A stretch of DNA of 27,310 nucleotides, taken from positions 1 through 27,310 of IMG/VR virus record IMGVR_UViG_3300025141_000598; one strand, 5' to 3'. This document shows, piece after piece, positions 3,955 to 25,074 of this stretch. The notes beneath the pieces were generated by a model. It ran no database searches. It was not told where the DNA came from and saw only the letters and a list, made by a program, of their open reading frames with translations. Position 1 is the stretch's first letter. Every line of letters begins with the position of its first letter. The stretch is from a virus. Taxonomy: Duplodnaviria > Caudoviricetes. The translations under genes were made by a program, and so were the position numbers.

Positions 3955-3960
3955 GTATGT

Positions 3961-5493: not shown

Positions 5494-5583
5494 ATCAAAA
5501 AAATTACAAAAAATTAGTTACACGTCTGCAAAAACAACGCACCCGTGTCGCAAGCGAAGGGGGGGTATGCCGAGCGTTTTTCA

Positions 5584-7315: not shown

Positions 7316-7360
7316 ATAAAAGACTCAAAAAGAATAAATAAAAAATACTGACAAAATGGT

Positions 7361-7554
7361 CACGACAACGACTACGACTCTTATAGAGTCTGTCGTAGTG
7401 TCGCTGTGTCGGCGCAATGTCGCTGTCGATGTCGCAACTATGTCGCAAACGCTTGAAAGCACTGATTTTACTGAATTCATGATGTCGCAAGTGGTGTCGC
7501 AACTCATGTCGCAAGCATTTTGAAACTGCACTGAAAAAAACACGTTTTGCGACA
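7361..7554. repeat. Iteron-like TGTCG(CAA) repeat cluster, putative replication origin
   Basis: TGTCG at 7391, 7399, 7407, 7418 and 7424; TGTCGCAA at 7430, 7441, 7483, 7495 and 7507; inverted TTGCGACA at 7547-7554; near-palindrome GACTCTTATAGAGTC at 7376-7390. Lies directly downstream of the primase-helicase. Confidence 0.75.
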
Positions 7555-7604: not shown

Positions 7605-9404
7605 CTAAAAAGGTGGTTCTTCATCAATCAGTTTATTGCTCTTTGCATAAGCAATATCACGCTCAATTGTTCGAACTGAGACGCCTGTTTTGCTTGAAAT
7701 TGCATCTTTGTCAGCTCCGTCATTGATCATTTGTGCAACGACTTCACGTCTCATCTCAAGATCGTCTTTGTCTTTTGACATGATTCCGTTTGAGTAGAGC
7801 CACGCAATTGGTAAAGCATCTTTACCATAGAAATGACGCGTCTTTTCAAATGACCACTTAAATGACGTTTCATACGTTTCAGCGTCAATGTCGAGTAGAG
7901 CGTCTGAATCGTTGTTTGCCAGCTCTGTCTTGATAACGCCGTCAAGCACTACGGTCTTACTCATGCTTCCGAGCTGGGTGCCTGCTTTTGATGAATGATG
8001 AACGAACCATGCACAGCGATCTTGTTGACGCAACTTAAGTAATAACGGTTGCACGTCAGATACCCATTCGTCTGCCTGATTCGAGTCGGTCATAGAAGTT
8101 AGAGTGAGGAGATTATCAAGAACCACTACGGAAGGATCTATCTTCTCGATCATGTCCCAGAACCATGTTTTTCCTTCTTCTGTATTGAGTGGTAACAATC
8201 CATGCTCTTGATCGTGATGCGACACGATAAATAAGTTCTTTTCTACGCGTTGTATAAGCTCTTTTCGTCTCTCGAAAGACTCAGCACTGAACATGTTGAG
8301 TTGTTGATTCAGACGTTCTTGCATCGCGTTTGGTGGCATTTCTGCATCGATATAAACGACTTTGACAGCGTTCGGTATCTTGTAATGACCGAAGTTGTAG
8401 CCTGACGCGAGTGCGATTGACATGACAGACGTACTCAGAGATTTGCAATGACCGGGAGCGCCGTGAATCATGAAAAGATTTGATCTCGCCATGAGATTCT
8501 CAATGAGCCATACTTTCGGTGGATACTCAATGTCTTTAAACGCTTTGTAATCGTGATAAACGACAGTGTGTGACGCTTCTTTGTGATATTCGTTGTCTCT
8601 CGCATACTTAACGACATCAAAGTATTCTTGTCGCTCATAAGCATCGTATAGATCGTCTTTTTCGTTCCAATGCGTTGGCGGTTTTACAATGCTCGTTTTA
8701 ATGTTCAACGATTCGAGCTTTTCTTTTAATGCGATAGCACAATCGAATCCCGCCTCGTCATTGTCAGGAAAAACAATCACTTCATTAAAGTCTTTGAGCT
8801 GTGTCCAGTTGCTTTGCTCTAGTGCTGAGACTCCGCCGTGCCATGCACAGATGATGTTCTCTTTTGCGAGTTCTTTTGCACCGAGAAACGCTTTTTCGCC
8901 TTCAACTACGATGACGGGCTTTGCTGAATCGCCTTCACTTAATAATAATGGCATCAATCCAGTTGGGCGCTTCATGATCCAGTTATTTGAATCAATGCGA
9001 CTAAAAGGACGATAAATCTTACCCTCGAATCGCATTGTGCAGAACGCATCATTAAAGCGTGAATAGATCTCTGCTTTGCTTGCAAGCGCTCTCATTTCGT
9101 CTGAGCTGTATTCTTTGCTTTGTATCTGTGTGTCGTTGTTTCTCACTGGCGGTAGTTTTTGTTCAGTGATACCGAGTGTTTCTAAAAATTCTGTGATGCT
9201 TGATTCTCCTCGCTCTCTTTGTATGAGTGAGAGCATGCCACCGCCTTCTTCGTTTTCGTGATCGTAAAATGTGCCTTTTGAGAGATCTATAGAGAGTGAG
9301 CCTTTGCGTCCGAATCTTAGTTCTCTGTCGCTACTGAGCTTTTCGTTGGGCGAACCCAACAATGCAATCGCGATCTGTTCTGCGTGTAGTGCTACATCGA
9401 TCAT
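7605..9404 (-). CDS. Primase-helicase (TOPRIM + RecA-like AAA_25 helicase + C-terminal HTH)
   Basis: TOPRIM motifs IVVEGEK, FPDNDEAG and KDDLYD; Walker A HGAPGHCKS; YIDAEM; Walker B VVLDNL; VHHSSK; terminal HTH ISSKTGVSVRTIERD. Confidence 0.92.
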   Translation of the reverse strand: MIDVALHAEQIAIALLGSPNEKLSSDRELRFGRKGSLSIDLSKGTFYDHENEEGGGMLSLIQRERGESSITEFLETLGITEQKLPPVRNNDTQIQSKEYSSDEMRALASKAEIYSRFNDAFCTMRFEGKIYRPFSRIDSNNWIMKRPTGLMPLLLSEGDSAKPVIVVEGEKAFLGAKELAKENIICAWHGGVSALEQSNWTQLKDFNEVIVFPDNDEAGFDCAIALKEKLESLNIKTSIVKPPTHWNEKDDLYDAYERQEYFDVVKYARDNEYHKEASHTVVYHDYKAFKDIEYPPKVWLIENLMARSNLFMIHGAPGHCKSLSTSVMSIALASGYNFGHYKIPNAVKVVYIDAEMPPNAMQERLNQQLNMFSAESFERRKELIQRVEKNLFIVSHHDQEHGLLPLNTEEGKTWFWDMIEKIDPSVVVLDNLLTLTSMTDSNQADEWVSDVQPLLLKLRQQDRCAWFVHHSSKAGTQLGSMSKTVVLDGVIKTELANNDSDALLDIDAETYETSFKWSFEKTRHFYGKDALPIAWLYSNGIMSKDKDDLEMRREVVAQMINDGADKDAISSKTGVSVRTIERDIAYAKSNKLIDEEPPF

Positions 9405-9487: not shown

Positions 9488-10099
9488 TCAGAACGGAATT
9501 TCTTCTGTCTCTTGTTGCTCATCGACAGAGCCATTCGTTTTGCTCTCATCAAGCGCTGTCTCTTCAAACGTATCTACTGTCGCTTCGAATGAATCGTCAG
9601 CTCGCCAACCTTGAATTTCAAACTCAGGTATTCTTGAACTACCTTTGCCGTAAGTGACTGCTTTTGATCCTGTGTATTCTATGACTGCAACTTTGCCTGC
9701 ATTTTCAGCAATTTGAGGATGCAACGCTGTATATAAAGCAAGAAAGCCTTGAGAGACGCCTTTTGCGTTTGATGACCATGTTCTTACACCGAGATCTTTT
9801 GTATAAATATCAATAGAAAAGCCTCTTTTGTATTTGAGTTTTTCATCTTCAGTGAGAAGGGTCCCATCATTGCGCTGTGTCGGAAGCGATTTACGAATTC
9901 CTACTTCATCGTCCCAGTGCCAGTCGGGTGAAAATCCCTCTTGAATCCAGCCCCAACCGCTTTTGATTGAGTTCGGATCAAGTAAGAATTTATCAATCGT
10001 TACTTCATCGTCACCTGCTTTCCAGCCGTTGACGCTGGGCATAAATTTGATGTATTTTCGTCCGTCCATATTGTCCTCTAGTCCTAGTAAATCACCCAT
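9488..10099 (-). CDS. Putative single-stranded DNA-binding protein
   Basis: Aromatic-rich beta protein with an acidic tail ending EEIPF (SSB-like C-terminus); upstream of the primase; AAGGAG RBS. Confidence 0.7.
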   Translation of the reverse strand: MGDLLGLEDNMDGRKYIKFMPSVNGWKAGDDEVTIDKFLLDPNSIKSGWGWIQEGFSPDWHWDDEVGIRKSLPTQRNDGTLLTEDEKLKYKRGFSIDIYTKDLGVRTWSSNAKGVSQGFLALYTALHPQIAENAGKVAVIEYTGSKAVTYGKGSSRIPEFEIQGWRADDSFEATVDTFEETALDESKTNGSVDEQQETEEIPF

Positions 10100-10200: not shown

Positions 10201-11406
10201 TCAGTTCAAACTCTCAAATAAATCTTCTTGTAAATCTTTAATCTTCACTTTGCGAAGCGATGGATCTTTCGTCTTGTTGTTTTCACCCATGAACTCATGT
10301 GAATAGCAGATTCTTGAATAGTCATGTGTTAGCGTTGCAAAAGCGTGTCCGTTTCTTGCGTTGTTTCTCTCTTTTTCGTGATTTGCTCTGTCTCTCAGAT
10401 CTTTCATGTTGCTTGAGGTGGCTCTCCAGATCTTTGACTTTTCACGATATGCACCCATTCTCATATGTGCTGTTTTTGAATAGACTCGATAGCCTTCTTC
10501 TAATGCTATGTCTGCAATTGTGTCTGAGAGTCTTGCTCCTATGCCCAGACCTTGATAGTCGGGCAAAACAACTGTTCGACACAATCTGACAGCAGTGCGA
10601 TCATCGTTCTCATAATGAGGCGGATACCAACCCGGTTGTGGCATATAAGAGCTGAAGCCGACGATGTTGCTGTTCCAGATTGCTGTGTAACAAACAGCGC
10701 TTGTCGGTATTTCAGACGTTAAATAATGATGTTTCGCAAACATGTTCCATAAAGTGATTGGTGATTTGTAGACTTCAATATCAATTCGTGGTCGCCGAAG
10801 TGACCTCCTAGACAATCTTTGAGCGTCAGTGTCATAAACCCAATCGGGTTCTAACCACTCAAGTATGTCTTGATGACAGCTCGCGAGTACAACTCGTTTA
10901 AGCTGTTTTCTTTTAATGTATTTAGAAAATGCAACTGAACACGATTTTGCGACAGCTCTATTGACGACAGAAGAGTATTCATCAATGACGCAATTGTCTT
11001 TCAGTCGTCTTGCGAGATCAGCTCTGAAGCCCTCGCCATTTGAAAGTACATTTCTCGGCTTCGCCCAAGTCGGGATTGAGTTTAGTCCGACAGCTCCGAG
11101 TCTTTCTACAGCGTCATCTTCGTTTTCAAAGTGTGACGCAACAGATCGATTTCTGTGCCATGTTAATTGTTCTTCTTCACCGAATCTTTTGAGTAGGGTG
11201 CTTTTACCACTGCCGCTCGATCCGAAGATTATGCCCAATGTAAAGTCTTCTTCGATCTCTGGCATATCAGGCACAGTGAACTGTGTTGTGCCTGAAAATT
11301 CGAAGTCAAAATTTTTGTAGATCGTTTGATCAATCTCAGTCATTTCGATTTCACTGCTGAGAACTTCTTGCTCTTTCACAAAACTTGTTTGTCTAGCGTC
11401 AATCAT
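10201..11406 (-). CDS. ABC-type ATPase fused to a GNAT acyltransferase (soluble; candidate DNA-modifying enzyme)
   Basis: Walker A GSSGSGKS, ABC signature LSNGE, Walker B VIDEYSS, H-loop ASCH; C-terminal FAKHHYL and acetyl-CoA motif RTVVLPDYQGLGIG; no TM segments. Confidence 0.88.
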   Translation of the reverse strand: MIDARQTSFVKEQEVLSSEIEMTEIDQTIYKNFDFEFSGTTQFTVPDMPEIEEDFTLGIIFGSSGSGKSTLLKRFGEEEQLTWHRNRSVASHFENEDDAVERLGAVGLNSIPTWAKPRNVLSNGEGFRADLARRLKDNCVIDEYSSVVNRAVAKSCSVAFSKYIKRKQLKRVVLASCHQDILEWLEPDWVYDTDAQRLSRRSLRRPRIDIEVYKSPITLWNMFAKHHYLTSEIPTSAVCYTAIWNSNIVGFSSYMPQPGWYPPHYENDDRTAVRLCRTVVLPDYQGLGIGARLSDTIADIALEEGYRVYSKTAHMRMGAYREKSKIWRATSSNMKDLRDRANHEKERNNARNGHAFATLTHDYSRICYSHEFMGENNKTKDPSLRKVKIKDLQEDLFESLN

Positions 11407-11582
11407 CAGTGAATCACTCGCTCATGAAACTCAACACACAATTGCTCGAAGCGCTCATTGATGTAATCTTCGTATTCGAGATGTTCTTTCTCGTTTGATT
11501 TGCAATACTTGACATATTCTTCGTGCATCCATTTGACGAAGTCTAAGAACTCATCGAAATGTCTGTTCTTAATATCAGACAT
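11406..11582 (-). CDS. Small hypothetical protein (58 aa)
   Basis: Start reassigned to ATG 11582 (MSDIKNRHF...HERVIH), overlapping the end of the resolvase gene. Confidence 0.7.
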   Translation of the reverse strand: MSDIKNRHFDEFLDFVKWMHEEYVKYCKSNEKEHLEYEDYINERFEQLCVEFHERVIH

Positions 11583-12009
11583 CACTACGAGCTTTAATGA
11601 AGCCAATGAATAGATAAATAAATTGATCAAAGTGCATACGAGCAGGGTATTCGCTGAACTCGACATCGTAACTTTCATCGACAAAGTTAAACATCATCAC
11701 AGGAAACTGAACTTGTATGTCTTGATAGTCGTACTTGTAAATCAGAATCGGTATCTCTTGTCTCTCTTCACAGACATCACAGACTTGTTTCCACCATTCG
11801 TTGCGTGGTAAATCATTCGCTTGTTTCGCATATCGCTTACATTCTATTTGAAAATTATCAAGCCCAACGAGATCTGCGCCGCCATCTCTTGTTTGATTCA
11901 GATTGCGCTCAAGAGAGTAGGGCAGATGATAGTTCTCAAGCTCACGATTGATCATGTTCTTGATCGTGTTTTCAAATGAATGTCCTTTTACTCTACTAGC
12001 TTTCGACAC
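11575..12009 (-). CDS. Holliday-junction resolvase-like PD-(D/E)XK nuclease
   Basis: SRVKGHSFE, GGADL, IECKR, WWKQ and PILIYK pattern; GTG start; in the replication module. Confidence 0.8.
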   Translation of the reverse strand: MSKASRVKGHSFENTIKNMINRELENYHLPYSLERNLNQTRDGGADLVGLDNFQIECKRYAKQANDLPRNEWWKQVCDVCEERQEIPILIYKYDYQDIQVQFPVMMFNFVDESYDVEFSEYPARMHFDQFIYLFIGFIKARSDV

Positions 12010-12154: not shown

Positions 12155-12351
12155 CTTTTGCAAGTCAATAAATTCAGTATCAAACAGACGTATGTTATTA
12201 GTAATGTGTCAATATTAAATATATATTTTTATATATTACAATTTGAATATAGATGATGAACAGATGACAGAATGATAAATAATGATTGTTTACAGATAAC
12301 AGCCGTGTATTATTATATATATTAATAATTAGTTTTTTATAGGAGAACGAA
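12155..12351. promoter_or_regulatory. AT-rich divergent control region
   Basis: Transcription diverges here. Rightward TTTACA (12289-94), 16 nt, TATTAT (12311-16); leftward TTGACA at 12212-12207 with no well-spaced -10; CAGATRACAG repeated at 12261 and 12293. Confidence 0.6.
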
Positions 12352-12639
12352 ATGGAAACACTCAACAAAAAAATAGAACCTTTTGTCTTTATATCTGCGG
12401 ATGAATGGAAAAAACAGTTAGAAAAAAACAATGCTCATATAATAGAAGAAACTGGTGAACATTTTATTATGGGATGGAATCCAAAAACCTGTAGTAATTT
12501 TGCTCAAACTGTAGAGATTCATCCAGTATTAAGAATGAATTACATGAGACCCAAAATCGGTTCCATGAAGGATTGGGAAGAAAAAACTTTAAGAGCAAAA
12601 TTGGAAGAACATCAAACAAACAACAGGGCAGCCAATTAA
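12352..12639 (+). CDS. Early hypothetical protein (95 aa)
   Basis: Strong AGGAG RBS; followed by a terminator. Confidence 0.8.
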   Translation: METLNKKIEPFVFISADEWKKQLEKNNAHIIEETGEHFIMGWNPKTCSNFAQTVEIHPVLRMNYMRPKIGSMKDWEEKTLRAKLEEHQTNNRAAN

Positions 12640-12652
12640 GGCTGCCTTTTTT
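12627..12652 (+). terminator. Rho-independent terminator
   Basis: GGCAGCC-AATTAA-GGCTGCC-TTTTTT. Confidence 0.75.
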
Positions 12653-12665
12653 ATAGGAGAACGAA

Positions 12666-13193
12666 ATGAAACTAAAATTAGAAACAATGAAAAACAGTCC
12701 TTTTTATATATCAACGGAGAATCTGATATATGACGAGTGTGATAATTACAAACAATCTCTGACAGCAAAAAACAAAATTGCTAAAGCCAGACTTATTAGA
12801 GTCAACAAAATGATCACCGAAGAAAGAAAAAGAATCAAAGCGATAATTGATGAATTTGGTGAAAATCACGATATGGACATTAAAACAAGGATAAATGATC
12901 TTGTTCGTTATCGTAAAGAGTTCAAGAAAGAAATTGAACAGGTTGCGACTGAGTATAGCTTCAGAAGAAAAATCAATGCATTACTTAAAAAGCATAGCTA
13001 TTTATCTGTGCTTTGGGATGGTGATCACGATGTTTTTACTACTTGGGTTTACTCAGATGATTTCGATGCTGAGAAAGACTTTGAAGGTGATCCATTTCAA
13101 GCCGAACACTTTTGCGATGATTATGAAGAAGCATACGAAAGATGTTTGGCCTACATTGAGCATCATGAAACCAAAAACAGGGCAGCCAATTAA
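12666..13193 (+). CDS. Early hypothetical protein (175 aa)
   Basis: AGGAG RBS; basic helical N-terminal half, acidic/aromatic C-terminal half. Confidence 0.8.
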   Translation: MKLKLETMKNSPFYISTENLIYDECDNYKQSLTAKNKIAKARLIRVNKMITEERKRIKAIIDEFGENHDMDIKTRINDLVRYRKEFKKEIEQVATEYSFRRKINALLKKHSYLSVLWDGDHDVFTTWVYSDDFDAEKDFEGDPFQAEHFCDDYEEAYERCLAYIEHHETKNRAAN

Positions 13194-13194
13194 T

Positions 13195-14022
13195 ATGCAC
13201 GCAACATATAGACATTATTACATAACAACAGGCGCTTCTGCGAAGCTCTACACATTGCGCTGTCATGAGCGTTTCACAGTAAGTCTACCAACTGGTGGCG
13301 CTCGACAACATGAGACTGACTATCACATTAAAACTCTTTGTGCTGACTCAGATCGTGCGATAAAGAAAGCACACGAATACGTTGACACTAAACACGCAGA
13401 CGATGAGACGAAACCGAAACTTATGACTGAAGGTGCAAAACAGAAAACATACAAAATCACGCACAGAAGCCCAGAAGTGATCGAGCGCATCAGAACAAGA
13501 AAAGCGTTTTCTGAAGGCATAAGAAAAGGACTCGCATTCAAAAAGTGGACAATCGAAGCACACAAAAAACTCGATGACGAGATTGTTCCATTCGGTTACT
13601 GGAAAGATGTAAAGATCGAAGAAATGCCAATGAAGAACATTCAATACTTTGCGAGTCTGACTGAGTACAAAAGCGAGATACATAAAAGATTGTCAGATCT
13701 TTGTAAGCCACACTGCAAAGATGTGTTTGAAGATCGCAACAAGCATTTTGCAAACATCAATGAAAAGAAAAACATCAAAGCAATGATTGTGAAAATTGAT
13801 CGTTATGAAACTGATTACGGTGTTCATACTTCAGTGCATTACATCACAGAGCAAGGTCAAAGACTCAAAACATTCGGATCATGCACTACAGCGTTTAATA
13901 GAGCGCTTGTCGATGATTACAGCGTATATGACATGATTGAGTTTGAAGCGACAGTTAAAGAACACAAAGCTTTTGAGACGTATAAATCTACAAAATTAAT
14001 ACGACCAAAATTAACAAAATAA
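13195..14022 (+). CDS. Early protein (275 aa) with a PFG-type motif and probable C-terminal OB fold
   Basis: Start reassigned to ATG 13195 (TAA-T-ATG coupling). VPFGYWKDVKIEEMP resembles DUF3820/QSregVF-like PFGKYKG modules; the C-terminus IEFEATVKEHK...TKLIRPK looks OB-like. Confidence 0.7.
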   Translation: MHATYRHYYITTGASAKLYTLRCHERFTVSLPTGGARQHETDYHIKTLCADSDRAIKKAHEYVDTKHADDETKPKLMTEGAKQKTYKITHRSPEVIERIRTRKAFSEGIRKGLAFKKWTIEAHKKLDDEIVPFGYWKDVKIEEMPMKNIQYFASLTEYKSEIHKRLSDLCKPHCKDVFEDRNKHFANINEKKNIKAMIVKIDRYETDYGVHTSVHYITEQGQRLKTFGSCTTAFNRALVDDYSVYDMIEFEATVKEHKAFETYKSTKLIRPKLTK

Positions 14023-14045
14023 TTTCACATACATAGGAGAACGAA

Positions 14046-14231
14046 ATGGAAACGAAAAACAATGAAGAAAGGCTTGTGCAAGATATAAAAGGAGTCTTAG
14101 AACTTATCAATTTTGAACTTGACTACCCTAATAAAAATTCTGTTCATTCGCATCAGATAAGCCTTCATCAAAAAGTATCGGAATTAAGGGAATTATTGAT
14201 TCGGTTAGATTTCGAATATCAAGAAGAATAA
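14046..14231 (+). CDS. Hypothetical protein (61 aa)
   Basis: Same ATAGGAGAACGAAATG leader as the upstream early genes. Confidence 0.75.
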   Translation: METKNNEERLVQDIKGVLELINFELDYPNKNSVHSHQISLHQKVSELRELLIRLDFEYQEE

Positions 14232-14254
14232 TTAATTTTACATAGGAGAGAGAA

Positions 14255-14998
14255 ATGAAACGCAAAAAGCGTTCACAAACGCACGGGAAAATCGTCACAC
14301 TCATTCGACTCAATAAATATGAGAGTGAACTGTCTTTAGCTGAGAGAAGAAAGCTATTAAAAAAACAACGCGCAGAGATCGAAGACTATCTCGGATCAGG
14401 CGCACACAAACACAAAGAAAGAAAGTGGCATTACGTTGAGTTGCATCACAGTAACCCTTATAAAATGCCTGAGTTTGAGAAAGCGATCAAACACGCAATA
14501 CGCAAAAGAGCAGACATTGTTCTGAATCGTATCGGCACACGCATGAAGAATCTCAAGTTCATCGATCTCGTTTATGACGCGAGCGAGAATCATAGCGTTA
14601 ATTTTTATGTGTGCTATCAGAGCGAAAAACCGATCGATGCGAGCGTTCTAGTTGCAATCAGTAATGAGCATAGAGCAGAAGTGTCTCGCAACACGAAATA
14701 CGCACTCGCAAAGCTCAAACGCAAAGGAGTAAAGCTCGGATCAAAAGACATCGACAAGCTCACTGAACACGCAGTCAAGTCGCACACAGACAAGCGCTTA
14801 GAGTTTGCTGTGAAGATGCGACCTGTTGTTGAAGAGATACAACAATACGGCGCAACAACGCTCACAGAGATTGCGAAAGCGCTCAATAATCGTGAGATTA
14901 AAACGCGATACAAGTCACACAAGTCGAGCTGGCACGCTTCAACAGTCAGCAACTTACTTAAAAGCATAAAAGAACTGAAAGAGGGAGAGAAATCATGA
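14255..14998 (+). CDS. Serine recombinase/resolvase homologue, catalytic motifs degenerate
   Basis: MPEFEKAI, VSRNTKYALAKLKRKGVKLGS and TTLTEIAKALNNREIKT...WHASTVSNLL match resolvase plus recombinase-type DNA-binding domain. YxRVS appears as LIRLN. Confidence 0.8.
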   Translation: MKRKKRSQTHGKIVTLIRLNKYESELSLAERRKLLKKQRAEIEDYLGSGAHKHKERKWHYVELHHSNPYKMPEFEKAIKHAIRKRADIVLNRIGTRMKNLKFIDLVYDASENHSVNFYVCYQSEKPIDASVLVAISNEHRAEVSRNTKYALAKLKRKGVKLGSKDIDKLTEHAVKSHTDKRLEFAVKMRPVVEEIQQYGATTLTEIAKALNNREIKTRYKSHKSSWHASTVSNLLKSIKELKEGEKS

Positions 14999-15546
14999 GA
15001 GGAAGTAAACGATATGAGAGCATCGATGCGTTGATTGAGTCCTCACCTTATCGAGATGAGCCCGACAAAAATGAAGTTTTAAAACTGTTTTCAGGCGCAA
15101 TGCTACTAAGAATGCTTCATCACGATGTGAAGAAAATAAACGGAAGCAAAGAGGCGATTCAGCTGGGAATGTTTGTGAGTGAGAGTGGATATCTAGCTGT
15201 ACAACTGCTCGTCTCAGTGATTCTTCTGCGCGGAGCCAGCAAGAAGATTTCATCCTCAGACCTGTTCCTTAGTATGTATGCGCTGGGAATAGCCGCTTCT
15301 AAAAGCAGTGTGGATAAGACGCTCAAATCAGCAGTCGATCATGATGTCTTCACCAAGCATCAGGGCACCGATAAAAGGTCGTATCACTACGATCTGAATC
15401 ACGACATGATTGAGCCGTTTAATCGATTCATGACCGATTACTTTTCACGCATAACCAATCTTAGCCCAGAGGACTTTGATGAAGTTCGACAAGGCGTGTT
15501 TCCAGCGAGTGAAGTGCCCAAAATGTTTAAGGCACTGCTCAAATAA
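14995..15546 (+). CDS. MarR-like winged-helix DNA-binding protein
   Basis: SKSSVDKTLKSAVDHDVFTKHQGTDKRSYHY fits a recognition helix plus DxR wing; ATGA-coupled to the upstream gene. Confidence 0.65.
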   Translation: MRGSKRYESIDALIESSPYRDEPDKNEVLKLFSGAMLLRMLHHDVKKINGSKEAIQLGMFVSESGYLAVQLLVSVILLRGASKKISSSDLFLSMYALGIAASKSSVDKTLKSAVDHDVFTKHQGTDKRSYHYDLNHDMIEPFNRFMTDYFSRITNLSPEDFDEVRQGVFPASEVPKMFKALLK

Positions 15547-15564
15547 TAAGGTTAAAAAATGAAC

Positions 15565-15608
15565 CGTAAATTACAACGTAAATTACAACGTATATTACAA
15601 CGTATATT
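15565..15608. repeat. 12-bp tandem repeat CGTAWATTACAA x3.7
   Basis: Units at 15565, 15577, 15589 and a partial unit at 15601. Confidence 0.9.
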
Positions 15609-15660
15609 TTAATGCAATTGTTCTTGCAATGATGAAAAGGGTCTATAAATTAATGATGAA

Positions 15661-15990
15661 ATGAAGATGAAAGAAAGAGACGAAATAACACCAAGCTGGG
15701 CATACTTAGATATCAAAGAGACGTGTCAAACAAACGGAAAGCTGAAAAAGCAAGCAAAAGGAAAGCGAATACACGCACGTCTAGCGAGCAGAGCAGACGT
15801 TATTGACTTCGCAACAGTCTTAGAAAGTTTGTACGAGCGAGTGTTGCATTATCTTAGAACGAATGACTCGAACGATCTCTGGCTCGTCTCTGACGTAAGA
15901 AAAGCGATGGAAGACGCAAACACAAATCACGAAACGCTCATAGAGAAGCGTTTGATCAAAGAAAAGAACAAATACAGCGACAACGAATGA
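15661..15990 (+). CDS. Hypothetical protein (109 aa)
   Basis: ORF with core-genome codon style; exact start uncertain (MKMKE). Confidence 0.7.
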   Translation: MKMKERDEITPSWAYLDIKETCQTNGKLKKQAKGKRIHARLASRADVIDFATVLESLYERVLHYLRTNDSNDLWLVSDVRKAMEDANTNHETLIEKRLIKEKNKYSDNE

Positions 15991-16271
15991 ATCAACGATT
16001 GGTAAAAGAAAGCAGAACAGCGTTTGATAATCGTAATGTTACAAATAACGAGTTTCAGCAATCGACTCTGATTGCGAAAAATCAATGAAAACCAATAAAC
16101 ACAGCGAAAGCGGGAATATGAACAAATATAGACATATGCGTATAATATATATTAATTTTCCTATTTTAAGAGAGATAAGAGCTTTAAAACTTTTTCTTCT
16201 TCTTAATACAATAGAAAATCCACGTCTGTTATTCGTATTCTTGCAATCGCTCTTTACTACAGGAGAGCATT

Positions 16272-16520
16272 ATGCAAGCACTACAACAATACAGAGATCG
16301 TGAATATCACACTTTCATACTTTTAGATCAGAAGAATGAAGTCGGTGGAAACACCATAACTGTCAGAAAAGACAGCATCTATTCGTATTTTGCAGATCGT
16401 TCAGATTCGTCAGCTACGATAACAACACCTGAAGGTACGTTCACTGTAACGATGTCGCCTTATGACATTCAAAAGATGATCACGAAGCACATCACATGGA
16501 GACAAACCAATGGTCGGTAA
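16272..16520 (+). CDS. Hypothetical protein (82 aa)
   Basis: AGGAG RBS; overlaps the start of the next gene. Confidence 0.75.
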   Translation: MQALQQYRDREYHTFILLDQKNEVGGNTITVRKDSIYSYFADRSDSSATITTPEGTFTVTMSPYDIQKMITKHITWRQTNGR

Positions 16521-17469
16521 AGTAACAGACGATGGCGGTGCTTCTGCAAGCGGTGTCTCAGCGCTTCTTGGTAACAATCCTTACAAGTCAAGAACTGAAT
16601 TGCTTGACGAGAAGATCAGAGCGCGAGATGGTGAAAACATAAGACTAGATGAACAGCCATCTATAATGAGAATGGGTGACGTTCTTGAAAACACTGTGCT
16701 TGATGAAGCGTGTCTCAGAATGGGTCTCGATAATGTCAGATTGAATATTGATGAGCCACTAATACATGAGCGATTACCGATACAGGGAAGTCCTGATGGG
16801 ATTGCAAGTGCTGGAGCCAATAACACAATCGTGATAGGCACTGATTACGACAAATGCATATTTACGCCTGATAGTGACATTGTTCAACTCAAAGGCGATG
16901 GCATCTTAGAGTGTAAGTGTACGAGTGCATTTCCTGAAGATGTGCTTCCTGCATGGCGCGGTAAAGATCAACTCTTCGCAAACATGGAGTGTGCAAACAT
17001 GACATGGGGCGCTGTTGTCGTACTCTATCAAAGTGTTTTCTTAAAGATATTTGTGTACACGCGAAACGAAGATTGGGTCAAAAGATTCGAGTCGGCTGTG
17101 ATTGACTTTGAGAGACGCATCGTTGAGCAAGATTATTATGATCCTGAAAGTTCTGAAGATTGCGACATTTTATATCCGAACGATGCTGAAGAAACAATCG
17201 AGCTTGAAGACGATCTTGAACATCATTTTTCTGAGATCTTACATGCGAAGAGTCTAATCAAGAACGTTCAGCAATCAATCAAAGATCATGAAGCTGTGAT
17301 TAAAGAACACATGCAAGAAAACAAACACGCATTATGTGGCACACACAGAGCAACGTGGGGAAGTCGTACATATAAAGCACAAAAAGAGAAGATTGTTCCT
17401 GCTAAAGAAGCGTACACAATTCGATCTAAAACATTATCAATCAGAGAGGAAGATTATGGACTTGACTAA
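16510..17469 (+). CDS. YqaJ-like viral recombinase / lambda-exonuclease family nuclease
   Basis: SASGVSALLGNNPYKSRTEL, MRMGDVLE, GSPDG and ILECK motifs. Confidence 0.9.
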   Translation: MVGKVTDDGGASASGVSALLGNNPYKSRTELLDEKIRARDGENIRLDEQPSIMRMGDVLENTVLDEACLRMGLDNVRLNIDEPLIHERLPIQGSPDGIASAGANNTIVIGTDYDKCIFTPDSDIVQLKGDGILECKCTSAFPEDVLPAWRGKDQLFANMECANMTWGAVVVLYQSVFLKIFVYTRNEDWVKRFESAVIDFERRIVEQDYYDPESSEDCDILYPNDAEETIELEDDLEHHFSEILHAKSLIKNVQQSIKDHEAVIKEHMQENKHALCGTHRATWGSRTYKAQKEKIVPAKEAYTIRSKTLSIREEDYGLD

Positions 17470-17707
17470 AAAATATGTTGGCAAAGTTGCATACAACAGA
17501 CAAAAGAACATGACTGAAACTTATGAAGCAATCAAAGTGTTTGCTGAAAAGACTGGACACACACCAACGCGTGTTGAGCTTGCAAAGCACATGAGCATCG
17601 GTCTAGGCGCAATAGACAAGCGCTTACAGCATTTGTTTAATCACTGTGAGTTTGTCGATAAAGACGAGAAGAACGGGCAAATAGTTCTCTATAACGAAGA
17701 TGTGTAA
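17456..17707 (+). CDS. LexA-N-like winged-helix protein (83 aa), no peptidase domain
   Basis: Start reassigned to ATG 17456 (GAGG RBS); TYEAIKVFAEKTGHTPTRVELAKHM resembles the LexA DNA-binding domain. Confidence 0.7.
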   Translation: MDLTKKYVGKVAYNRQKNMTETYEAIKVFAEKTGHTPTRVELAKHMSIGLGAIDKRLQHLFNHCEFVDKDEKNGQIVLYNEDV

Positions 17708-17870
17708 CAGTAGAGATAATGAGCCTTTTAAAGCATTTGTGAGTCGCATGTATTACAGAAACATATTAGAAAGAGCGCGACACGATGAAAAGCCTTATAA
17801 AAACCTATTCCGCTATTACAGGAAAAACTATGATTTTATACATGATAAATACAGAGAGGGTAAATCATGA
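17700..17870 (+). CDS. Small hypothetical protein (56 aa)
   Basis: Not in ORF track. MCNSRDNEPFKAFVSRMYYRNILERARHDEKPYKNLFRYYRKNYDFIHDKYREGKS; ATGA overlap with the integrase start. Confidence 0.65.
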   Translation: MCNSRDNEPFKAFVSRMYYRNILERARHDEKPYKNLFRYYRKNYDFIHDKYREGKS

Positions 17871-18952
17871 AATCTGACACACAAAACAAAAGAATTAAAA
17901 TTAAAACGCTGAGTAATCAAGAGCAGTCGTTTTATCTGTATTACTACAGAAACAACAAAGCACATTTGATGAAGATAGCAAGTCAAGGAACTGACATCGA
18001 TACTGTGAGACGCATTGCAAGCGATATAGAGAGTCGTATGAGTGTTGATGCACATTATGATCCGTTGCTTGAGAGACAAAAATCAAGACGTGAGATTAAA
18101 CGTGTTGATATAACTCTTCATCAGTTATTCACAGACTATTTAGATGACATCAACAAGAAGAAGTCACACGATAAGATTCAGCAGATTTACAACAACAACA
18201 TCAAAAACGTGCTAGGAGACAAAAAGATCAGCACGATTGAGAAAGCAGACATTGTTGAGCTGAAGAGAAAGATCAGCAAGAGAGCGCCTTACGTTGCAAA
18301 CTCTGTCATCACATATCTGCGTTCTGCGTTTAACTTCGCAATTGAAAGCGATCTATTAGAGAAGAATCCTTGCAGTCGCATTAAAAAGCACGAAGATGTT
18401 GAGCGTAATCGTATTTTGTCAAACGATGAGCTGAAGCGTGTTTTTGAAGTATTAAACGAGAAAGCGAAGAATAAAAACAATCATCAAAGCGTTGCATTTA
18501 TCAAGCTATTGATCTTCACAGGTGCAAGAGTTTCAGAGATTGCAAACATGCGTTTCAGCGACATTAAAGATCGTGTCATAAGACTGTCTCAGCACAAGAC
18601 AGATCATCTAGGACAAGACAAAATAATCTATTTAAACGATCACACATTGTCGATCATAAACGCTTTAAAACGCACGCATGAAAAAGCAAGAATTATCGGT
18701 ATTAAAAGCCCGCGTCATTTGTGGGATTCAGTCAGAAAAGAAGCAAACATCGAAGACGTGAGACTACATGATTTGAGACACACATACATCTCATTCGGCA
18801 TCAATACTCGCACTGTGTCATTCGATGAAATGAAAGATCTAGTCGGTCACAAAGACGCTAAATCAACGCAACGCTATTTAACGAGATCAATTGATACAAA
18901 CTTAGCTAACGCTGATGCTGTGTCGAATGAGCTTTTAAATCTAATCAACTAA
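17867..18952 (+). CDS. int: Tyrosine integrase
   Basis: Catalytic residues in TGARVSE (R), QHKT (K), HDLRH, VGH and TQRY (Y); N-terminal arm-binding-like region. Confidence 0.95.
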   Translation: MKSDTQNKRIKIKTLSNQEQSFYLYYYRNNKAHLMKIASQGTDIDTVRRIASDIESRMSVDAHYDPLLERQKSRREIKRVDITLHQLFTDYLDDINKKKSHDKIQQIYNNNIKNVLGDKKISTIEKADIVELKRKISKRAPYVANSVITYLRSAFNFAIESDLLEKNPCSRIKKHEDVERNRILSNDELKRVFEVLNEKAKNKNNHQSVAFIKLLIFTGARVSEIANMRFSDIKDRVIRLSQHKTDHLGQDKIIYLNDHTLSIINALKRTHEKARIIGIKSPRHLWDSVRKEANIEDVRLHDLRHTYISFGINTRTVSFDEMKDLVGHKDAKSTQRYLTRSIDTNLANADAVSNELLNLIN

Positions 18953-18967
18953 AAAAAAGGAACTAAA

Positions 18968-19225
18968 ATGAGTGAAAACACTGAAACAATCACGTTTGAC
19001 AATGAGCAATACAACGTCTCAGCTCTAAACGAGCAAGCAATTCAGTATTTTAATATTTTGATGAAACTGCAAAACGAATCAAACGAGCAATCGTATCAAT
19101 TAAGCAAAACAAACATTGCGATTGAAACAATGTCTGATCGTTTTAAAGCATTGCTTGACGAGCTTGATATAAAGCCTATCGAAGAGACTGTTATTGACAC
19201 AGAGACTAAAACGATAGAGCAGTAA
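18968..19225 (+). CDS. Hypothetical coiled-coil protein (85 aa)
   Basis: AAGGA RBS; TITFDNEQYNV followed by a long helix. Confidence 0.75.
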   Translation: MSENTETITFDNEQYNVSALNEQAIQYFNILMKLQNESNEQSYQLSKTNIAIETMSDRFKALLDELDIKPIEETVIDTETKTIEQ

Positions 19226-20653: not shown

Positions 20654-22939
20654 TTAATTTTGATTTAGTTGATATCCAATATTTCCCGGTGTTGTACCTA
20701 GTGTTGTAGGCGCAGGATTTGGGGTAGCATCAACAGATTGTTTTACTTGACTTGCTCTAAATCGTGTTGAAATAGCTTTCAATCCGGGTATTGCCGCAAA
20801 CCATTTGTTTGCATTTTTGATTCCTAGAACAGCAACGACATTTGTCCACATGTTTTGTAAGGCGCTTATATTAGCCGCGCTAGTATTAGAGAAATTCTGT
20901 GTCGTATTGAGCGTTCTGTTTGCGACTCTTGCAAACTGCTGAAGCAAAGCGATCTCTTCTTGTGTATACAGAGCGCTCATTAACGGTTTATTGTCTTGCA
21001 ACACTTTATTCACATTTGTCAGTAATTTTGCACCGCTCAAGCCTTCTCTTTGTGCGCCTCTACTTTGATTCATTATTTTTAGATAAATTTCTTGTCTGAG
21101 CCCATTCCATGAATCTGGAGATAAATTTTCTTTCATTTTAAGCAAGTCACGTTGTAAATTTGCTTTATTAATAAAGCCCAAATTAGAGCTATTAAATATG
21201 TAATTCGATGCACTTTCAGGCGCAACAACAAGCTCTCTATTTCCTGATTGTTGGTTGATTTTTGTTAATCGATCCATCAGGTTTCCAGACTCCCATTTTT
21301 GCTTGTAGTCTTTATATCCCTTGATTGCGTCTCTCCATGTTTTTATTACAATGTCGTCTCCTTGCAATAGAGCTGTTTCGAGCAAGCTGTCTATTTTATT
21401 ATCAAGTTGTGTTTTCATTTTACCCAAAGCAACTGATGATTCGTCTCCTTTTCCGCTTCTTATTTTTGAGTTTAGTTGCTTTCTTAAATCAAACAAACCT
21501 CTGACTGAAACACTAGAGTCTTTTGCGCCCAGTTCTGTAAAGCGCTTTATAAAGTTCTGCACAGGCAATAAATCATCAATCGCATGATCTTTTGTTATTA
21601 CTGTTTTTACATCATCGCCGAAACCTTTAAAGATGTTTGATGGCAACACTGTTCCTGATTCTTCTGAAAGCTCTCTTGCTGTAGTAAACGCTTTGTTTGC
21701 GTCTGTTTTTGCGACTTGTCTTGCCGCAGACAGTTCAGCTTGAGCTAAAGATCCGCCTTCGCCTCTACTTATTGTTGGCGCTGATCCAGCTAGAATTTTT
21801 TGTATTTCAGACATATTGCTTGTAATTGCTTGTTCTTGATCTGCTCTTGCTTGATTCATTATTTGTCTTGCATCGTCTCCGTAGACTCCTTTTCTTGCTT
21901 CGCCTTCAATAATTTGTGCTTGTTTGTTTCCTGTTAGTGTTCCTTTCGTCTGTGGAACTTTAACTGGTAAAGATTGTGCTTCAGAATATGCGATCGCTTC
22001 TTCTGTAGATGCTGGCTTTAACTCGCCTGAAACAAATTGATTTCTGAGTCGATCTTTAAACTCTTTTGTCATTGCGCTCCATTCAACACCCAATTGTTTT
22101 AGTATTTGTTGTCCTTGTGCGGTAAGCTCACCACCAGCGCCAAACATAGAATCGTCTGTTGCTCCCAATCTGATTTGCGTGTTTCTTAAAGCGTTAGCAA
22201 GAGAAGGAATCGCAGAGAATAATACATCAGCGCCACCCTGAAAGACGCTTGTGAGCGCGGCTGTTCCAACAGCTTTTGGTATATCAATACCCAAATCTGT
22301 ATCTGTAACTCCAAGAGATGATAAAGCGCCACTTCTTTGAGCGCCTGATGCTTGTGAAGCAACATCTTCACTAACGCTTAATATTCCACCTGTTCCGCCA
22401 GCTCTTACCATGTTGCCACCTATTCCAACACCCTTGTTGCCAACTCCAAGTTTTTTTCCTATACCGAGAAAGCTCAATAGTTTAAACACAGCGCTCATTG
22501 TGTCTTGAGTAGACCAGCCTGGCTTGTTTATATAATAATCTCTCCCACCTAATGCGACAGTTGTGTTTCCGTATTGGTCTTGTTTTATTTCTGCATCAGG
22601 AAGATTATTTTTGATTATGTTTACAGCATCTTGACCATGACCGCCAGAAGTCAATAGACCCAGAGATGTGGTCCAGGGCGCTGATCCTTTCATGCCTGGT
22701 CCTACACCTATGTTTCCTCCTGGGTATAGCTCTGGAGCTGTTGCTATTTCGGGCAATGCTGGATCGTATCTACCTTCTGCTGTTATTGCACCTCTTATTT
22801 TGGCGCCTGTTGCTGACCATGTTTCGGGATCAGCCCAGTTTTCTCTTTTTGTCCAGTCACCACCTCTGAAAATCAGGGCGCCTGATTCAAGATTGTATTC
22901 TTTACCTACTGCTGGCGGATTTTGCTCTGTAAATTTCAT
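20654..22939 (-). CDS. Large internal virion / DNA ejection protein
   Basis: 761 aa; last gene of the structural arm; Gly/Ala-rich amphipathic segments and YYINKPG motif. Position matches P22 gp16/gp20-like transfer proteins. Confidence 0.7.
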   Translation of the reverse strand: MKFTEQNPPAVGKEYNLESGALIFRGGDWTKRENWADPETWSATGAKIRGAITAEGRYDPALPEIATAPELYPGGNIGVGPGMKGSAPWTTSLGLLTSGGHGQDAVNIIKNNLPDAEIKQDQYGNTTVALGGRDYYINKPGWSTQDTMSAVFKLLSFLGIGKKLGVGNKGVGIGGNMVRAGGTGGILSVSEDVASQASGAQRSGALSSLGVTDTDLGIDIPKAVGTAALTSVFQGGADVLFSAIPSLANALRNTQIRLGATDDSMFGAGGELTAQGQQILKQLGVEWSAMTKEFKDRLRNQFVSGELKPASTEEAIAYSEAQSLPVKVPQTKGTLTGNKQAQIIEGEARKGVYGDDARQIMNQARADQEQAITSNMSEIQKILAGSAPTISRGEGGSLAQAELSAARQVAKTDANKAFTTARELSEESGTVLPSNIFKGFGDDVKTVITKDHAIDDLLPVQNFIKRFTELGAKDSSVSVRGLFDLRKQLNSKIRSGKGDESSVALGKMKTQLDNKIDSLLETALLQGDDIVIKTWRDAIKGYKDYKQKWESGNLMDRLTKINQQSGNRELVVAPESASNYIFNSSNLGFINKANLQRDLLKMKENLSPDSWNGLRQEIYLKIMNQSRGAQREGLSGAKLLTNVNKVLQDNKPLMSALYTQEEIALLQQFARVANRTLNTTQNFSNTSAANISALQNMWTNVVAVLGIKNANKWFAAIPGLKAISTRFRASQVKQSVDATPNPAPTTLGTTPGNIGYQLNQN

Positions 22940-22946
22940 TGACTAT

Positions 22947-24254
22947 TTAAAAAGGATCTGAGATTGGTTCAGAGCCATAAATTCTCATCTTCTTGGCTTT
23001 TCTGTCGTAATAAAGATCGCCTATTTTAATGTCTCCGTTTGCTACTGCTTGCTGAAAGTCTGTTGCGCCTGTATCTTCATTTGTTTCCATATCAAACTTT
23101 CTAAACAATTCAGCTTCAACATATCCTGAGTTTTCATCTCTTAAAGCGGCATTAAATCCGAGTATTTCGCCATGTTCTGCAACATATCTTTTTTGCAGTT
23201 CGAGCATTTTTCGATCACGCTCAGTTGTTGCTAACATAAATTTAACAATCAGTCTGTTTGCTTCTTTTGTTTTACCTAGACTTGCGATTGCTTTTTGATA
23301 AAGATTTGCTTCAAAGTCTGATGTTGCACCCGATCCGACTGCTCTCATACGAGGAACAATATAAGAGCTTAGAGCATCAAAAAGCTGTTGAGCGCCTAGA
23401 TTTTCAACATACGCTTGATCCTTTCCTCCAAATTCTACGAGCCATGATTTGATTGGCAAAAATGCTTCAGTCATAGCGCCAGTCTCAAAGTCTGGATCAT
23501 CGAGTAAAGTGTCCATTAAATACAGTCTGTCAGTCACATTTTGATTGTCTATCAATCTTTGGTCGCCCTTTGTGAGAGCATCGTACGCATATTCAATACC
23601 CATTTGTGATTGTATAGCTGGCATGTTTATCTGTGTCGCTCCTTGCCTCGTTTTTCGTTCTAAAAACTTAGCATATTCAGGATCAGTAGGAGAATCGTCA
23701 GTTCTTATATATTCTTCGTATGAAGTAGGGCCCTTTACTGGCGTCATTTGATTTTTGTAAATCTCACCTAAAATAGAAGGATCAGATTTTGCGTATTCAC
23801 CCATTGCTTCTGACATTTGATTTGTTGAGACAAGTTGATCTATTTGCTTATTAAGACTGGCTCTTTGTTGCTCTTTTCTAGCCCTCTCATTGGTTGCTTC
23901 TTGAGCTTGTTGCATAGCAAGTTGATTCGCTTGTCTTTGTTGAGCTTCAGCGCCTATGTTTCTTCCTGCAAATGCGTCACTGAGAGAGTAGAGCATGTTT
24001 CCTAGTCCTACGTTACGAGCGTTTCTTTGTTGTTTCTCATAAGTGTCTGCGCCAGCTTGCGTTTCAAAGAAGCCACGTTTTAATGCTTCTTGCTGTGCTT
24101 GATCAGGTGTAAAACCGCCGCCTCTTGCGAAGAAAGAGTTGATACGTCTAGGCTCTTGCACTGCAACACGATTCTGCTGTTGAGCTTGTTGCTGAGCTTG
24201 TTGCTGAGCTTGTTTCTGCATTTGCTCTAAATATTTTATGTATTCAGGTGTCAT
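22947..24254 (-). CDS. Internal virion / DNA ejection protein
   Basis: Gln-rich N-terminus and GSGATSDFE motif; between two other ejection-type genes. Confidence 0.65.
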   Translation of the reverse strand: MTPEYIKYLEQMQKQAQQQAQQQAQQQNRVAVQEPRRINSFFARGGGFTPDQAQQEALKRGFFETQAGADTYEKQQRNARNVGLGNMLYSLSDAFAGRNIGAEAQQRQANQLAMQQAQEATNERARKEQQRASLNKQIDQLVSTNQMSEAMGEYAKSDPSILGEIYKNQMTPVKGPTSYEEYIRTDDSPTDPEYAKFLERKTRQGATQINMPAIQSQMGIEYAYDALTKGDQRLIDNQNVTDRLYLMDTLLDDPDFETGAMTEAFLPIKSWLVEFGGKDQAYVENLGAQQLFDALSSYIVPRMRAVGSGATSDFEANLYQKAIASLGKTKEANRLIVKFMLATTERDRKMLELQKRYVAEHGEILGFNAALRDENSGYVEAELFRKFDMETNEDTGATDFQQAVANGDIKIGDLYYDRKAKKMRIYGSEPISDPF

Positions 24255-24263
24255 TTAATTTTC

Positions 24264-25064
24264 TCATTTGTTAAAGAAGCCGCCAGCAAATGCTGAACCG
24301 AGCAAGCCTACGCCTGCACCAAGCATGTCTCCGAAACCTACTTTTTGTCTTTGTGTTTCATTCGTAGATGAAGGCAAGAAACTGACACCAGACTTGAGAC
24401 GATCTAGCTGTACGTCAGGATATCCTTGCGCTCTCATGAACTCGCTGAAGTTTGCGTCAAGTTGAGCTTGTTGCATTTGTCTGTTCATTGCGCCGACATT
24501 TCCGAGCAGTCCAAGCGTTTTGTATTGGTCTGATAAAAGCCCACTTTGAATTCCTGTTCTGTACGAGCGGTCATCTAGTCCGAGCTGGGTTGCTGTGTCG
24601 AAGCCCGATTTTCTTAGATCTGAGACTGTGCGACCTACAGCGTCATAGTAACCACGATCTGCGTCTCCTTCTAGTAGAGCTGAACGAGATCCACCGAAAG
24701 CGCCCGCACCGATGGCTCTGTCTTGACTGTCTGCAATTTGTAATTGTCTCGCTCTGTCGAGATCTTGTATTGAACGATCAATGACTTCACTCTGGTACGG
24801 ATTCATATAAGGCGATATATCAAGTGGTGCGCCACCCATGTTTGCTAGTTGACCTCTAGGGTTATATCCCATTGAGTCACCGAACATGCCTCTTGTTGCA
24901 TCAAACGCAGTAACATCGTCAGGAGAGTATCCCGCAACAAGCGGATCAGTATAAGGTTGGAAAGGTATATCAGCCGCAGATTTAGCGCCTGAATAAACTT
25001 CTTTATACATAGCAAGAAGTTCGGGGTTTATTTCTGTGTTGGTTGTCTGGCTGCCCTTGGACAT
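24264..25064 (-). CDS. Internal virion / DNA transfer (pilot) protein
   Basis: MSKGSQTT start, YMNPY, AGAFGGSR and a Gly-rich hydrophobic C-terminus typical of podophage pilot proteins. Confidence 0.7.
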   Translation of the reverse strand: MSKGSQTTNTEINPELLAMYKEVYSGAKSAADIPFQPYTDPLVAGYSPDDVTAFDATRGMFGDSMGYNPRGQLANMGGAPLDISPYMNPYQSEVIDRSIQDLDRARQLQIADSQDRAIGAGAFGGSRSALLEGDADRGYYDAVGRTVSDLRKSGFDTATQLGLDDRSYRTGIQSGLLSDQYKTLGLLGNVGAMNRQMQQAQLDANFSEFMRAQGYPDVQLDRLKSGVSFLPSSTNETQRQKVGFGDMLGAGVGLLGSAFAGGFFNK

Positions 25065-25074
25065 GAATTTTTAC

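Follow-up and report, generated by a model that had tools for sequence, protein, structure and literature searches.

Purging of CC/GG steps and sparing of adjoining restriction-type sites in a lineage of podovirus-like phages

Motif avoidance and sequence-specific marks added to DNA after replication are both phenomena of known kinds (PMC12783734, PMC7544227). Avoidance of restriction sites in phages acts on words of four to six bases. Depletion of the protospacer-adjacent motif (PAM) of clustered regularly interspaced short palindromic repeat (CRISPR) systems concerns the dinucleotide CC/GG on both strands and has been attributed to selection (PMC12174588; PMC4246573). Among enzymes that act on phage DNA, the ABC-ATPase-GNAT fusion ("ABC-GNAT"), considered here together with Mu Mom, is predicted to acylate a DNA base (PMC7824862), and TAGT glycosyltransferases are described as attaching a sugar to a hydroxymethyl group or glucose already present (bioRxiv 2023.12.21.572611; PMC13390438). 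A dinucleotide-specific handle with swappable decorations is found in systems combining a C5 methyltransferase, TET and a glycosyltransferase (bioRxiv 2023.12.21.572611) and in CmoX/CmoY (PMC12783734); both act in a GpC or GC context and use a writer of the C5 methyltransferase type. The 7-deazaguanine system of DpdA (CAjan, PMC7544227) modifies guanine within a short motif and protects it from restriction. The subject of this paper is a 27,310-base virus record, IMGVR_UViG_3300025141_000598, analysed over its whole length and called the window below, a podovirus-like, integrase-bearing contig from which CC/GG steps have been purged.

As in restriction-site avoidance, words of four to six bases are purged from the window. 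What is chiefly lost, however, is a two-base step, whatever its context, and longer words that touch this step escape. The CRISPR effect amounts to about 5%, whereas avoidable CC/GG sites here are reduced 4- to 50-fold, with accompanying amino-acid changes and spared sites. The window encodes the same domain fusion as the predicted acyltransferases (phrog_11143), but the presence of this gene does not predict CC/GG depletion. Two members of the clade to which the window belongs, L050 and L066, share TAGT with the C5 methyltransferase systems. However, GC is enriched in the window (1.32), and neither a C5 methyltransferase nor a TET/JBP dioxygenase was found among the 37 window proteins or the scanned proteins specific to the relative G001, about 7 kb of the genome being unseen. 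The mark postulated below is likened to that of DpdA.

The ratio rho for CC/GG over the whole contig is 0.60. For each gene, the minimum CC/GG count allowed by the protein and a codon-aware expectation were computed, and sites above the minimum were called avoidable; the whole contig has 319 avoidable sites compared with 1193 expected. The gene-level null over-predicts, since undepleted relatives give ratios of 0.72-0.77, so that a fair baseline is about 0.75 and not 1. The corresponding ratio in the clade is 0.21-0.27. After control for amino acids and codons, the depletion reported in an earlier note on this sequence is confirmed. It requires adjacency: C-N-C occurs at 1.02 of expectation and gaps of one to seven bases give 0.92-1.14, only adjacent CC being depleted.

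The tyrosine integrase (17867-18952) contains 14 CC/GG sites (5 CC and 9 GG), 12 of them within Gly, Pro or Trp codons and two at codon junctions. The protein imposes a minimum of 13, and the codon-aware expectation is 64.5 +/- 6.1. The earlier estimate of 60-70 expected sites was accurate and near-total avoidance stands, but the count of 12 does not. The same pattern, described earlier for 13195-14022, 14255-14998 and 11575-12009, was recovered in all three (counts in the feature list below). Positions 3000-3950 and 8200-9400 are indeed depleted, with gene ratios of 0.31 and 0.18, although the loss is not near-total as had been proposed. Likewise, the depletion assigned to 13195-19225 is real but not confined there. 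It is genome-wide, and three stretches inside that interval are spared or barely depleted: 14046-14231 (7 avoidable sites, 6.8 expected), 14995-15546 (21, 32.6 expected) and 17700-17870 (4, 6.5 expected). In four small genes the depletion is slight or absent (0.64-1.06). There is also a gradient: the ratio for ten early, replication and lysogeny genes is 0.14 in the window and 0.08 in G001, and that for eight genes of the virion and of packaging is 0.29 in the window and 0.21 in G001; the portal gene retains 37 avoidable sites of 118 expected.

The loss acts at the level of DNA. At synonymously free sites pooled from G000, G001 and G005, CC on the coding strand stands at 313/2030 (0.15) and GG at 280/1628 (0.17). 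All 16 four-base contexts are depleted (0.05-0.37), and by the 3' base the ratios are 0.16 for CCA, 0.20 for CCC, 0.17 for CCG and 0.13 for CCT. Non-coding DNA has rho of 0.57-0.68, compared with 1.16-1.32 in three outgroup genomes. A cause in translation was ruled out because CC and GG are equally reduced and non-coding DNA is affected. Two causes listed in the earlier note are likewise not supported: avoidance of CCA alone, as expected for Ssp phosphorothioation, does not agree with depletion in all 16 contexts, and neither does restriction at GGCC, CCGG or GGNCC, the counts under the codon-aware null being 21/20.3 for CCGG, 25/24.1 for GGNCC and 19/18.0 for GGWCC.

A hypermutable C in CC would yield A in place of the lost G and NCT in place of the lost NCC, and neither is seen, which favours selection over mutation. 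At four-fold sites the base shares before G are T 0.43, C 0.29, A 0.23 and G 0.05, and before T they are T 0.35, C 0.25, A 0.20 and G 0.19, so that by arithmetic comparison usage before G is approximately a proportional rescaling of usage before T. The share of A before G (0.23) is close to that elsewhere (0.20-0.24), that is, lost G is not replaced by A. NCN boxes have no excess of T, lost NCC not being replaced by NCT; C-ending codons are commoner in the clade than in the outgroups, and TT and TC are enriched in the window rather than lost. Of the two processes offered earlier, sustained selection against CC/GG fits this redistribution of bases and mutation does not.

The purge reaches protein composition. 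Gly, Pro and Trp together make up 8.3% of clade portals, compared with 10.3-11.1% in others, and 3.3% of the window integrase (3.3-3.8% in the clade), compared with 7.8-10.7% in three distant orthologues. In the portal, terminase and one virion protein, 52 Gly, Pro or Trp residues are exclusive to G004 and 21 to the window; one ejection protein has no such drop. Ala-Ala pairs, which force GCNGC, number 31, compared with about 108 expected from the Ala frequency. In the clade they are never encoded as bare GCWGC, whereas 107 of the 140 outgroup pairs are. CC/GG junctions shared by G000 and G001 were dropped as evidence, since unavoidable junctions had been included.

Restriction-type words purged in the window include GCWGC (4 found, 56 expected), CGWCG (4/34), GWGCWC (0/23), GAGCTC, AAGCTT and others. 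Observed and expected counts were compared between words that do and do not touch CC/GG, using a codon-aware null that had been fitted to the CC/GG penalty. The counts for non-touching and touching words are, respectively, 0/62.9 and 6/15.7 for GCWGC, 2/76 and 5/14 for CGWCG, 0/10.8 and 8/5.3 for CAGCTG, 2/30 and 8/16 for GYGCRC, 0/32 and 3/8 for CWCGWG, and 2/16 and 5/3.8 for GATATC. In a survivor test, for which words were picked on total depletion, nine of the ten sites that survive in the window touch CC/GG, where a share of 0.22 is expected (P=1e-5), as do 7/11 in G001, 7/11 in G005 with L052, 3/3 in L050, 1/2 in L066 and 2/3 in L063. The lowest P in 17 outgroup sets was 0.28, many of these sets having few or no survivors. 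When homologous sites were merged, touching was found in 9/13 GCWGC, 6/8 CGWCG and 15/17 CAGCTG. Sparing extends to words containing either base pair of the step (touching counts 22/73 and 11/44), suggesting that a mark on the step would be bulky or lie between the two bases. The spared contexts include CCA, CCT and CCG. G004 avoids 23 words without sparing, and G009 retains GCWGC, with 43 sites in L264.

A separate pattern, the reverse of that in the clade, was seen in outgroup G003 (L058, L059), where 64 GATC sites do not touch CC/GG and none of 25.7 expected do; GGCC, GGATG and CCWGG are all at zero there, and CCGG and GCSGC are enriched.

The depletion is lineage-specific. Among 26 terminase loci, the three at 90-100% identity have rho of 0.52-0.59 and the 23 at 74-83% have 0.97-1.15. 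The one ABC-GNAT locus of 18 with 94% identity has rho of 0.53, the other 17 (35-61%) having 0.88-1.30, and 15 YqaJ relatives at 32-38% identity have 0.94-1.03. Two further scans, each taking the best 80 of about 590 loci (160 in total), gave a median rho of 1.00 with three loci below 0.8, all of which carry the replication module of the window. G009 is a deeper relative (terminase 80%, primase 59% identity) that is also depleted, at 532/1114 overall and 0.06-0.35 in the replication operon, whereas its virion genes are outgroup-like (0.4-1.3).

The features of the window are as follows.

1789-6102, minus strand: portal, large and small terminase, with milder CC/GG depletion (0.26-0.31).
6326-6733, minus strand: PD-(D/E)XK endonuclease-like gene, 4 avoidable CC/GG of 17.6 expected.
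6734-7315, minus strand: 193-residue protein that could be assigned to no known family and is conserved in G000, G001, G006 and G009.
7605-9404, minus strand: Toprim and AAA_25 primase-helicase, 17 avoidable of 94.4 expected.
9488-10099, minus strand: 203-residue protein with an acidic tail, likely binding single-strand DNA, downstream of the slot described below.
10201-11406, minus strand: ABC-ATPase-GNAT fusion (phrog_11143), in the swappable slot.
11575-12009, minus strand: RusA-like/PD-(D/E)XK nuclease, upstream of the slot, 3 avoidable of 21.4 expected.
12352-13193, plus strand: two variable small open reading frames, with little or no depletion (ratios 1.06 and 0.70).
13195-14022, plus strand: early gene of unknown function (phrog_3628), 1 avoidable of 35.2 expected.
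14255-14998, plus strand: resolvase/invertase-like gene (weak matches), 3 avoidable of 40.6 expected.
16510-17469, plus strand: YqaJ/RecE-like exonuclease, 5 avoidable of 45.1 expected.
17867-18952, plus strand: tyrosine integrase, 1 avoidable of 51.5 expected.
18968-19225, plus strand: 85-residue unknown gene, 0 avoidable of 8.1 expected, containing a 216-bp run free of CC/GG.
20654-27174, minus strand: ejection and virion genes, with milder depletion (0.24-0.39; one gene of 74 residues at 0).

The predicted gene set thus comprises an SU10-type portal, terminases, a Toprim/AAA primase-helicase, the ABC-GNAT fusion, a RusA-like nuclease, a YqaJ exonuclease and a tyrosine integrase, with a lysozyme and podovirus-like ejection proteins. 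Marine metagenome contigs from four runs match the window over long pieces at 99% identity or more, and no RNA data set was listed as containing it. The contig of a relative is 36,041 bases long, so that about 9 kb of the genome is missing from the window; 1.6 kb of this (the tail fibre region) is readable in L064, and no clade contig spanning the missing capsid region was found in two scans. The search with the integrase gave a best match of only 34% identity among 185,579 species genomes and nine loci in metagenomes, all phage-like, and the host was not found by it. No tRNA or Rfam match marks an attachment site in the window, and no prophage junction was recognisable in the contigs from the four runs.

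The two small open reading frames of 12352-13193 are read as recent arrivals. They are AT-rich, are preceded by near-identical leaders (12328-12360 and 12640-12675) that each end in a ribosome-binding site, and share the terminal residues NRAAN, which suggests cassette exchange by short homology. The 183-residue gene at 14995-15546 (plus strand) is covered by short look-alike contigs to a depth several times that of the genes beside it; the extra depth at this undepleted gene is consistent with its being common to other phages. A 436-residue protein at 307-1617 (minus strand) has an ART-PolyVal ADP-ribosyltransferase-like domain (PF18760), and no counterpart of its gene was found in G001 or G002-G004.

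A swappable slot lies in the replication operon, flanked by the RusA-like gene and the gene for the likely single-strand binding protein. It is occupied by ABC-GNAT in the window and G005, by an amino-methyltransferase-like gene in G001 and G009, and by an 86-residue protein plus a TAGT glycosyltransferase in L050 and L066. The TAGT of L050 matches PF20691 (E 4e-45) and is not present in the window; a nucleotide-sugar epimerase/decarboxylase-like gene and a cupin lie near the slot in L050 and L066. The ABC-GNAT of the window matches phrog_11143 (E 4e-107) and PF00583 and has the P-loop GSSGSGKS, and it is a candidate writer or decorator of the putative mark. The slot genes are themselves depleted (0.08-0.40), which indicates long residence in this gene pool. 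The last residues of the ABC-GNAT are QEDLF and those of the G001 methyltransferase QVSLF, both of which resemble the sliding-clamp motif.

It had been proposed that depletion might track the ABC-GNAT gene. It does not, as G001, L050, L066 and G009 are depleted without ABC-GNAT in the slot, and the more distant ABC-GNAT relatives, 17 marine loci, are without exception undepleted (0.88-1.30). The purge neither requires ABC-GNAT nor follows from its presence alone. Other writers were also sought. PF01702 (the TGT family) had no match at E<=1 in five records (G001, Aeh1, PX29, pT24 and VmeM-32), although DpdA might have diverged too far to be recognised by this model, and the genomes of the clade are not complete; no TGT-family match was found among the 37 window proteins. 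For the 193-residue protein, a candidate specificity factor, clustering at 50% yields 22 relatives, and no Pfam family is informative. The 203-residue protein has a low-confidence structure model with no enzyme match; its best fold match is a phiC31 integrase-recombination directionality factor fusion chain (E 0.014), and on this model a second role as a recombination directionality factor is possible.

Several other genes come and go in the clade around the primase (L055:7328-8377 and L055:4860-5366 in G001; L050:4443-5405 and 7182-7538). This set includes a PF11397 glycosyltransferase between the terminase genes, a cytidylyltransferase-like gene, the nucleotide-sugar epimerase/decarboxylase-like gene and the cupin.

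Both signals were also found in cultured phages. Seventeen were tested, picked from 61 ABC-GNAT and 25 TAGT records, with 36-229 kb of each read. In Aeromonas phage Aeh1, which carries TAGT, words not touching CC/GG number 5 of 399 expected and touching words 58 of 192 (rho 0.80); in Aeromonas phage PX29, which carries ABC-GNAT, the counts are 5/418 and 43/180 (rho 0.77), and in VmeM-32 they are 3/159 and 13/69 (rho 0.91). PTm1 and P12024S give P=0.03, and the other twelve show no sparing. Phage phiE255 has rho of 0.71 at 63% GC without sparing, and the ABC-GNAT carriers without CC/GG depletion include pT24, P12024S, TR-TP2 and LE4. Phage 65, whose host species is that of PX29, shows neither signal.

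Aeh1 and PX29 resemble the clade in their CC/GG depletion, their spared words and the exchange of TAGT and ABC-GNAT in one slot, the Aeh1 TAGT (L096:23454-24653) and the PX29 ABC-GNAT (L097:23141-24319) occupying one syntenic position. Unlike the clade, they are lytic T4-like phages of 220-230 kb with milder depletion (0.77-0.80), and otherwise only the tail fibre and one weak match of 13195-14022 are shared. The spared words of the two differ (GAGCTC 10/12 in Aeh1 and 0/9 in PX29; CTTAAG 5/10 and 0/8), which is what different decorations might cause. The neighbouring methyltransferase of Aeh1, p090, was rejected as the writer, since it is present in phage 65, which has no sparing, and was not found in VmeM-32, which has it. 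Ten Aeh1 genes are common to PX29 and VmeM-32 but not to phage 65; among them there is no evident base modifier and no convincing clade homologue, one of them presumably encoding an Alt-type ADP-ribosyltransferase. No writer shared by the clade and Aeh1 was found beyond the slot.

The swap of ABC-GNAT and TAGT also occurs in Nonlabens phages P12024S and P12024L (L093:16313-17452, L094:16409-18674), the second of two unrelated cultured pairs that exchange these modules at one position, and pT24 and PTm1 carry one module each (ABC-GNAT or TAGT). The ABC-GNAT match of pT24 (L098:22067-23239) has one in-frame TGA, and that of TR-TP2 is split across two frames. In the Mu-like phages phiE255 (L127:2234-3966) and Komp_PAO1_1 (L129:2393-4122), ABC-GNAT follows the tail-fibre genes and is itself followed by a formyltransferase, an arrangement that suggests, from gene order, acyl-then-formyl modification of DNA. 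The mom gene of Mu also lies after the tail-fibre genes.

The explanation we favour, with a probability of about one half, is that a bulky mark installed by the phage on its CC/GG steps blocks some restriction enzymes at a small cost per site. The phage would put a covalent mark on CC/GG of its own DNA, and the mark would shield adjoining sites from some restriction enzymes of the host. The enzymes of the slot (ABC-GNAT, TAGT and the amino-methyltransferase) would write or decorate it behind the replication fork. Its cost might be that marked incoming DNA is less readily transcribed, integrated or replicated, or else that it is exposed to modification-dependent nucleases and glycosylases, as noted for hypermodified DNA (PMC13326640), and this cost would be strongest on genes read from the incoming genome. 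The lineage would then have been selected to hold as few CC/GG steps as its proteins allow. Base modification at CC/GG, one of the causes suggested in the earlier note, gains indirect support from the spared restriction-type sites, a signal absent from that note. A wider proposal can be put forward only tentatively: that the clade, Aeh1, PX29 and VmeM-32, although unrelated, have one undescribed CC/GG mark, written or decorated by interchangeable clamp-tethered acyl, sugar or methyl enzymes, which would shield sites and whose cost would rewrite genome and proteins, above all in genes read from marked DNA as it enters the cell.

Several observations weigh against this explanation. Sparing at P<1e-4 was found in only three of the 17 cultured ABC-GNAT or TAGT carriers (Aeh1, PX29 and VmeM-32), and ABC-GNAT relatives at 55-61% identity show neither signal, although that of PX29 is at only 42%; together these indicate that the slot genes are not sufficient. 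No enzyme making a hydroxyl or sugar handle for TAGT was found among the window proteins and relatives scanned. Some words are not spared (GWGCWC 1/16.5, GAAGAC 1/5.7, GAATGC 1/7.5, GAGCTC 0/5, CTGCAG 0/4.3), and GGCC, GGATG, CCWGG and CCTC are avoided though CC/GG lies within them. CAGCTG is spared also in outgroup G002 (0/6.3 non-touching, 4/2.6 touching). Survivors in G009 are not enriched beside CC/GG (5/107 and 3/46, P=0.45), so that the purge can occur without spared sites, and the virion genes of G009 suggest that the early/late gradient may partly reflect the residence time of a gene in the lineage. The clade counts are small and the clade genomes are related.

The purge might instead be a response to a host defence that reads unmodified CC/GG directly, such as a two-base nicking or base-modifying enzyme, the sparing being a separate effect or a by-product of Gly, Pro and Trp codon constraints. 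The depletion of G009 without sparing agrees with this, as does the confinement of the purge to a single lineage, which is what a host shift would produce, and the scarcity of Ala-Ala pairs and the lack of bare GCWGC show that avoidance rules do collide. We nevertheless regard such a defence as unlikely. The sparing remains under a codon-aware null with the proteins fixed, G004 avoids its 23 words without any sparing, and G009 keeps GCWGC, from which it follows that it faces different host enzymes, although the purge is retained together with the replication module. Moreover, Aeh1 and PX29 show both signals and phage 65, from the host species of PX29, neither. We know of no defence that reads a two-base CC/GG step. 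Quite improbable, in our judgement, is a mark installed by the host, for example a phosphorothioate or the product of a methyltransferase, beside which the phage would be protected and whose cost it would purge, the slot enzymes being passengers. Either base pair of the step protects, as with a backbone mark, and no phage writer common to the clade and Aeh1 was found beyond the slot. Phosphorothioate systems are known for CCA or GGCC motifs, however, and the spared contexts CCA, CCT and CCG exceed these, while PX29 and phage 65 differ despite their one host species.

Escape from CRISPR systems with a CC or GG PAM (type I-F, or Cas9 with NGG), also raised in the earlier note, is less probable still. 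The motif, the involvement of both strands and the indifference to flanking bases all match. The size of the effect does not: phages targeted by Pseudomonas aeruginosa type I-F contain 8.27% CC compared with 8.74% (PMC12174588), whereas here avoidable sites fall 4- to 50-fold, rho is 0.52-0.60 and proteins change. The spared restriction sites would also be left unexplained. There is least room for mutational decay, whether by deamination of methylated C in CC, ultraviolet lesions at CC or oxidation of GG. TC/GA is raised in the clade (1.13-1.23, compared with about 1.0 in relatives), as decay would predict. However, before G the share of A is steady while that of G drops, T is not in excess in NCN boxes, codons ending in C are more frequent than in outgroups, TT and TC are over-represented, and marine sister phages are undepleted, so that this explanation is already largely refuted.

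New here are the co-occurrence of the two signals in a single small genome, the cost seen in the proteins, the exchangeable slot and the cultured test phages. In the limited literature searched, no genome-wide CC/GG purge with spared adjacent sites and no DNA modification of Aeh1 or PX29 was found. These two phages provide a cultured test system for the putative CC/GG mark, and a DNA acyl- or glycosyltransferase specific for two bases would be a useful labelling tool. If the favoured explanation is true, a substrate context would be available for the first time for the predicted acyltransferases of the ABC-GNAT family, and likewise for TAGT enzymes that lack a TET partner, and the genome sequence alone would expose a hidden DNA modification together with its cost to the phage.

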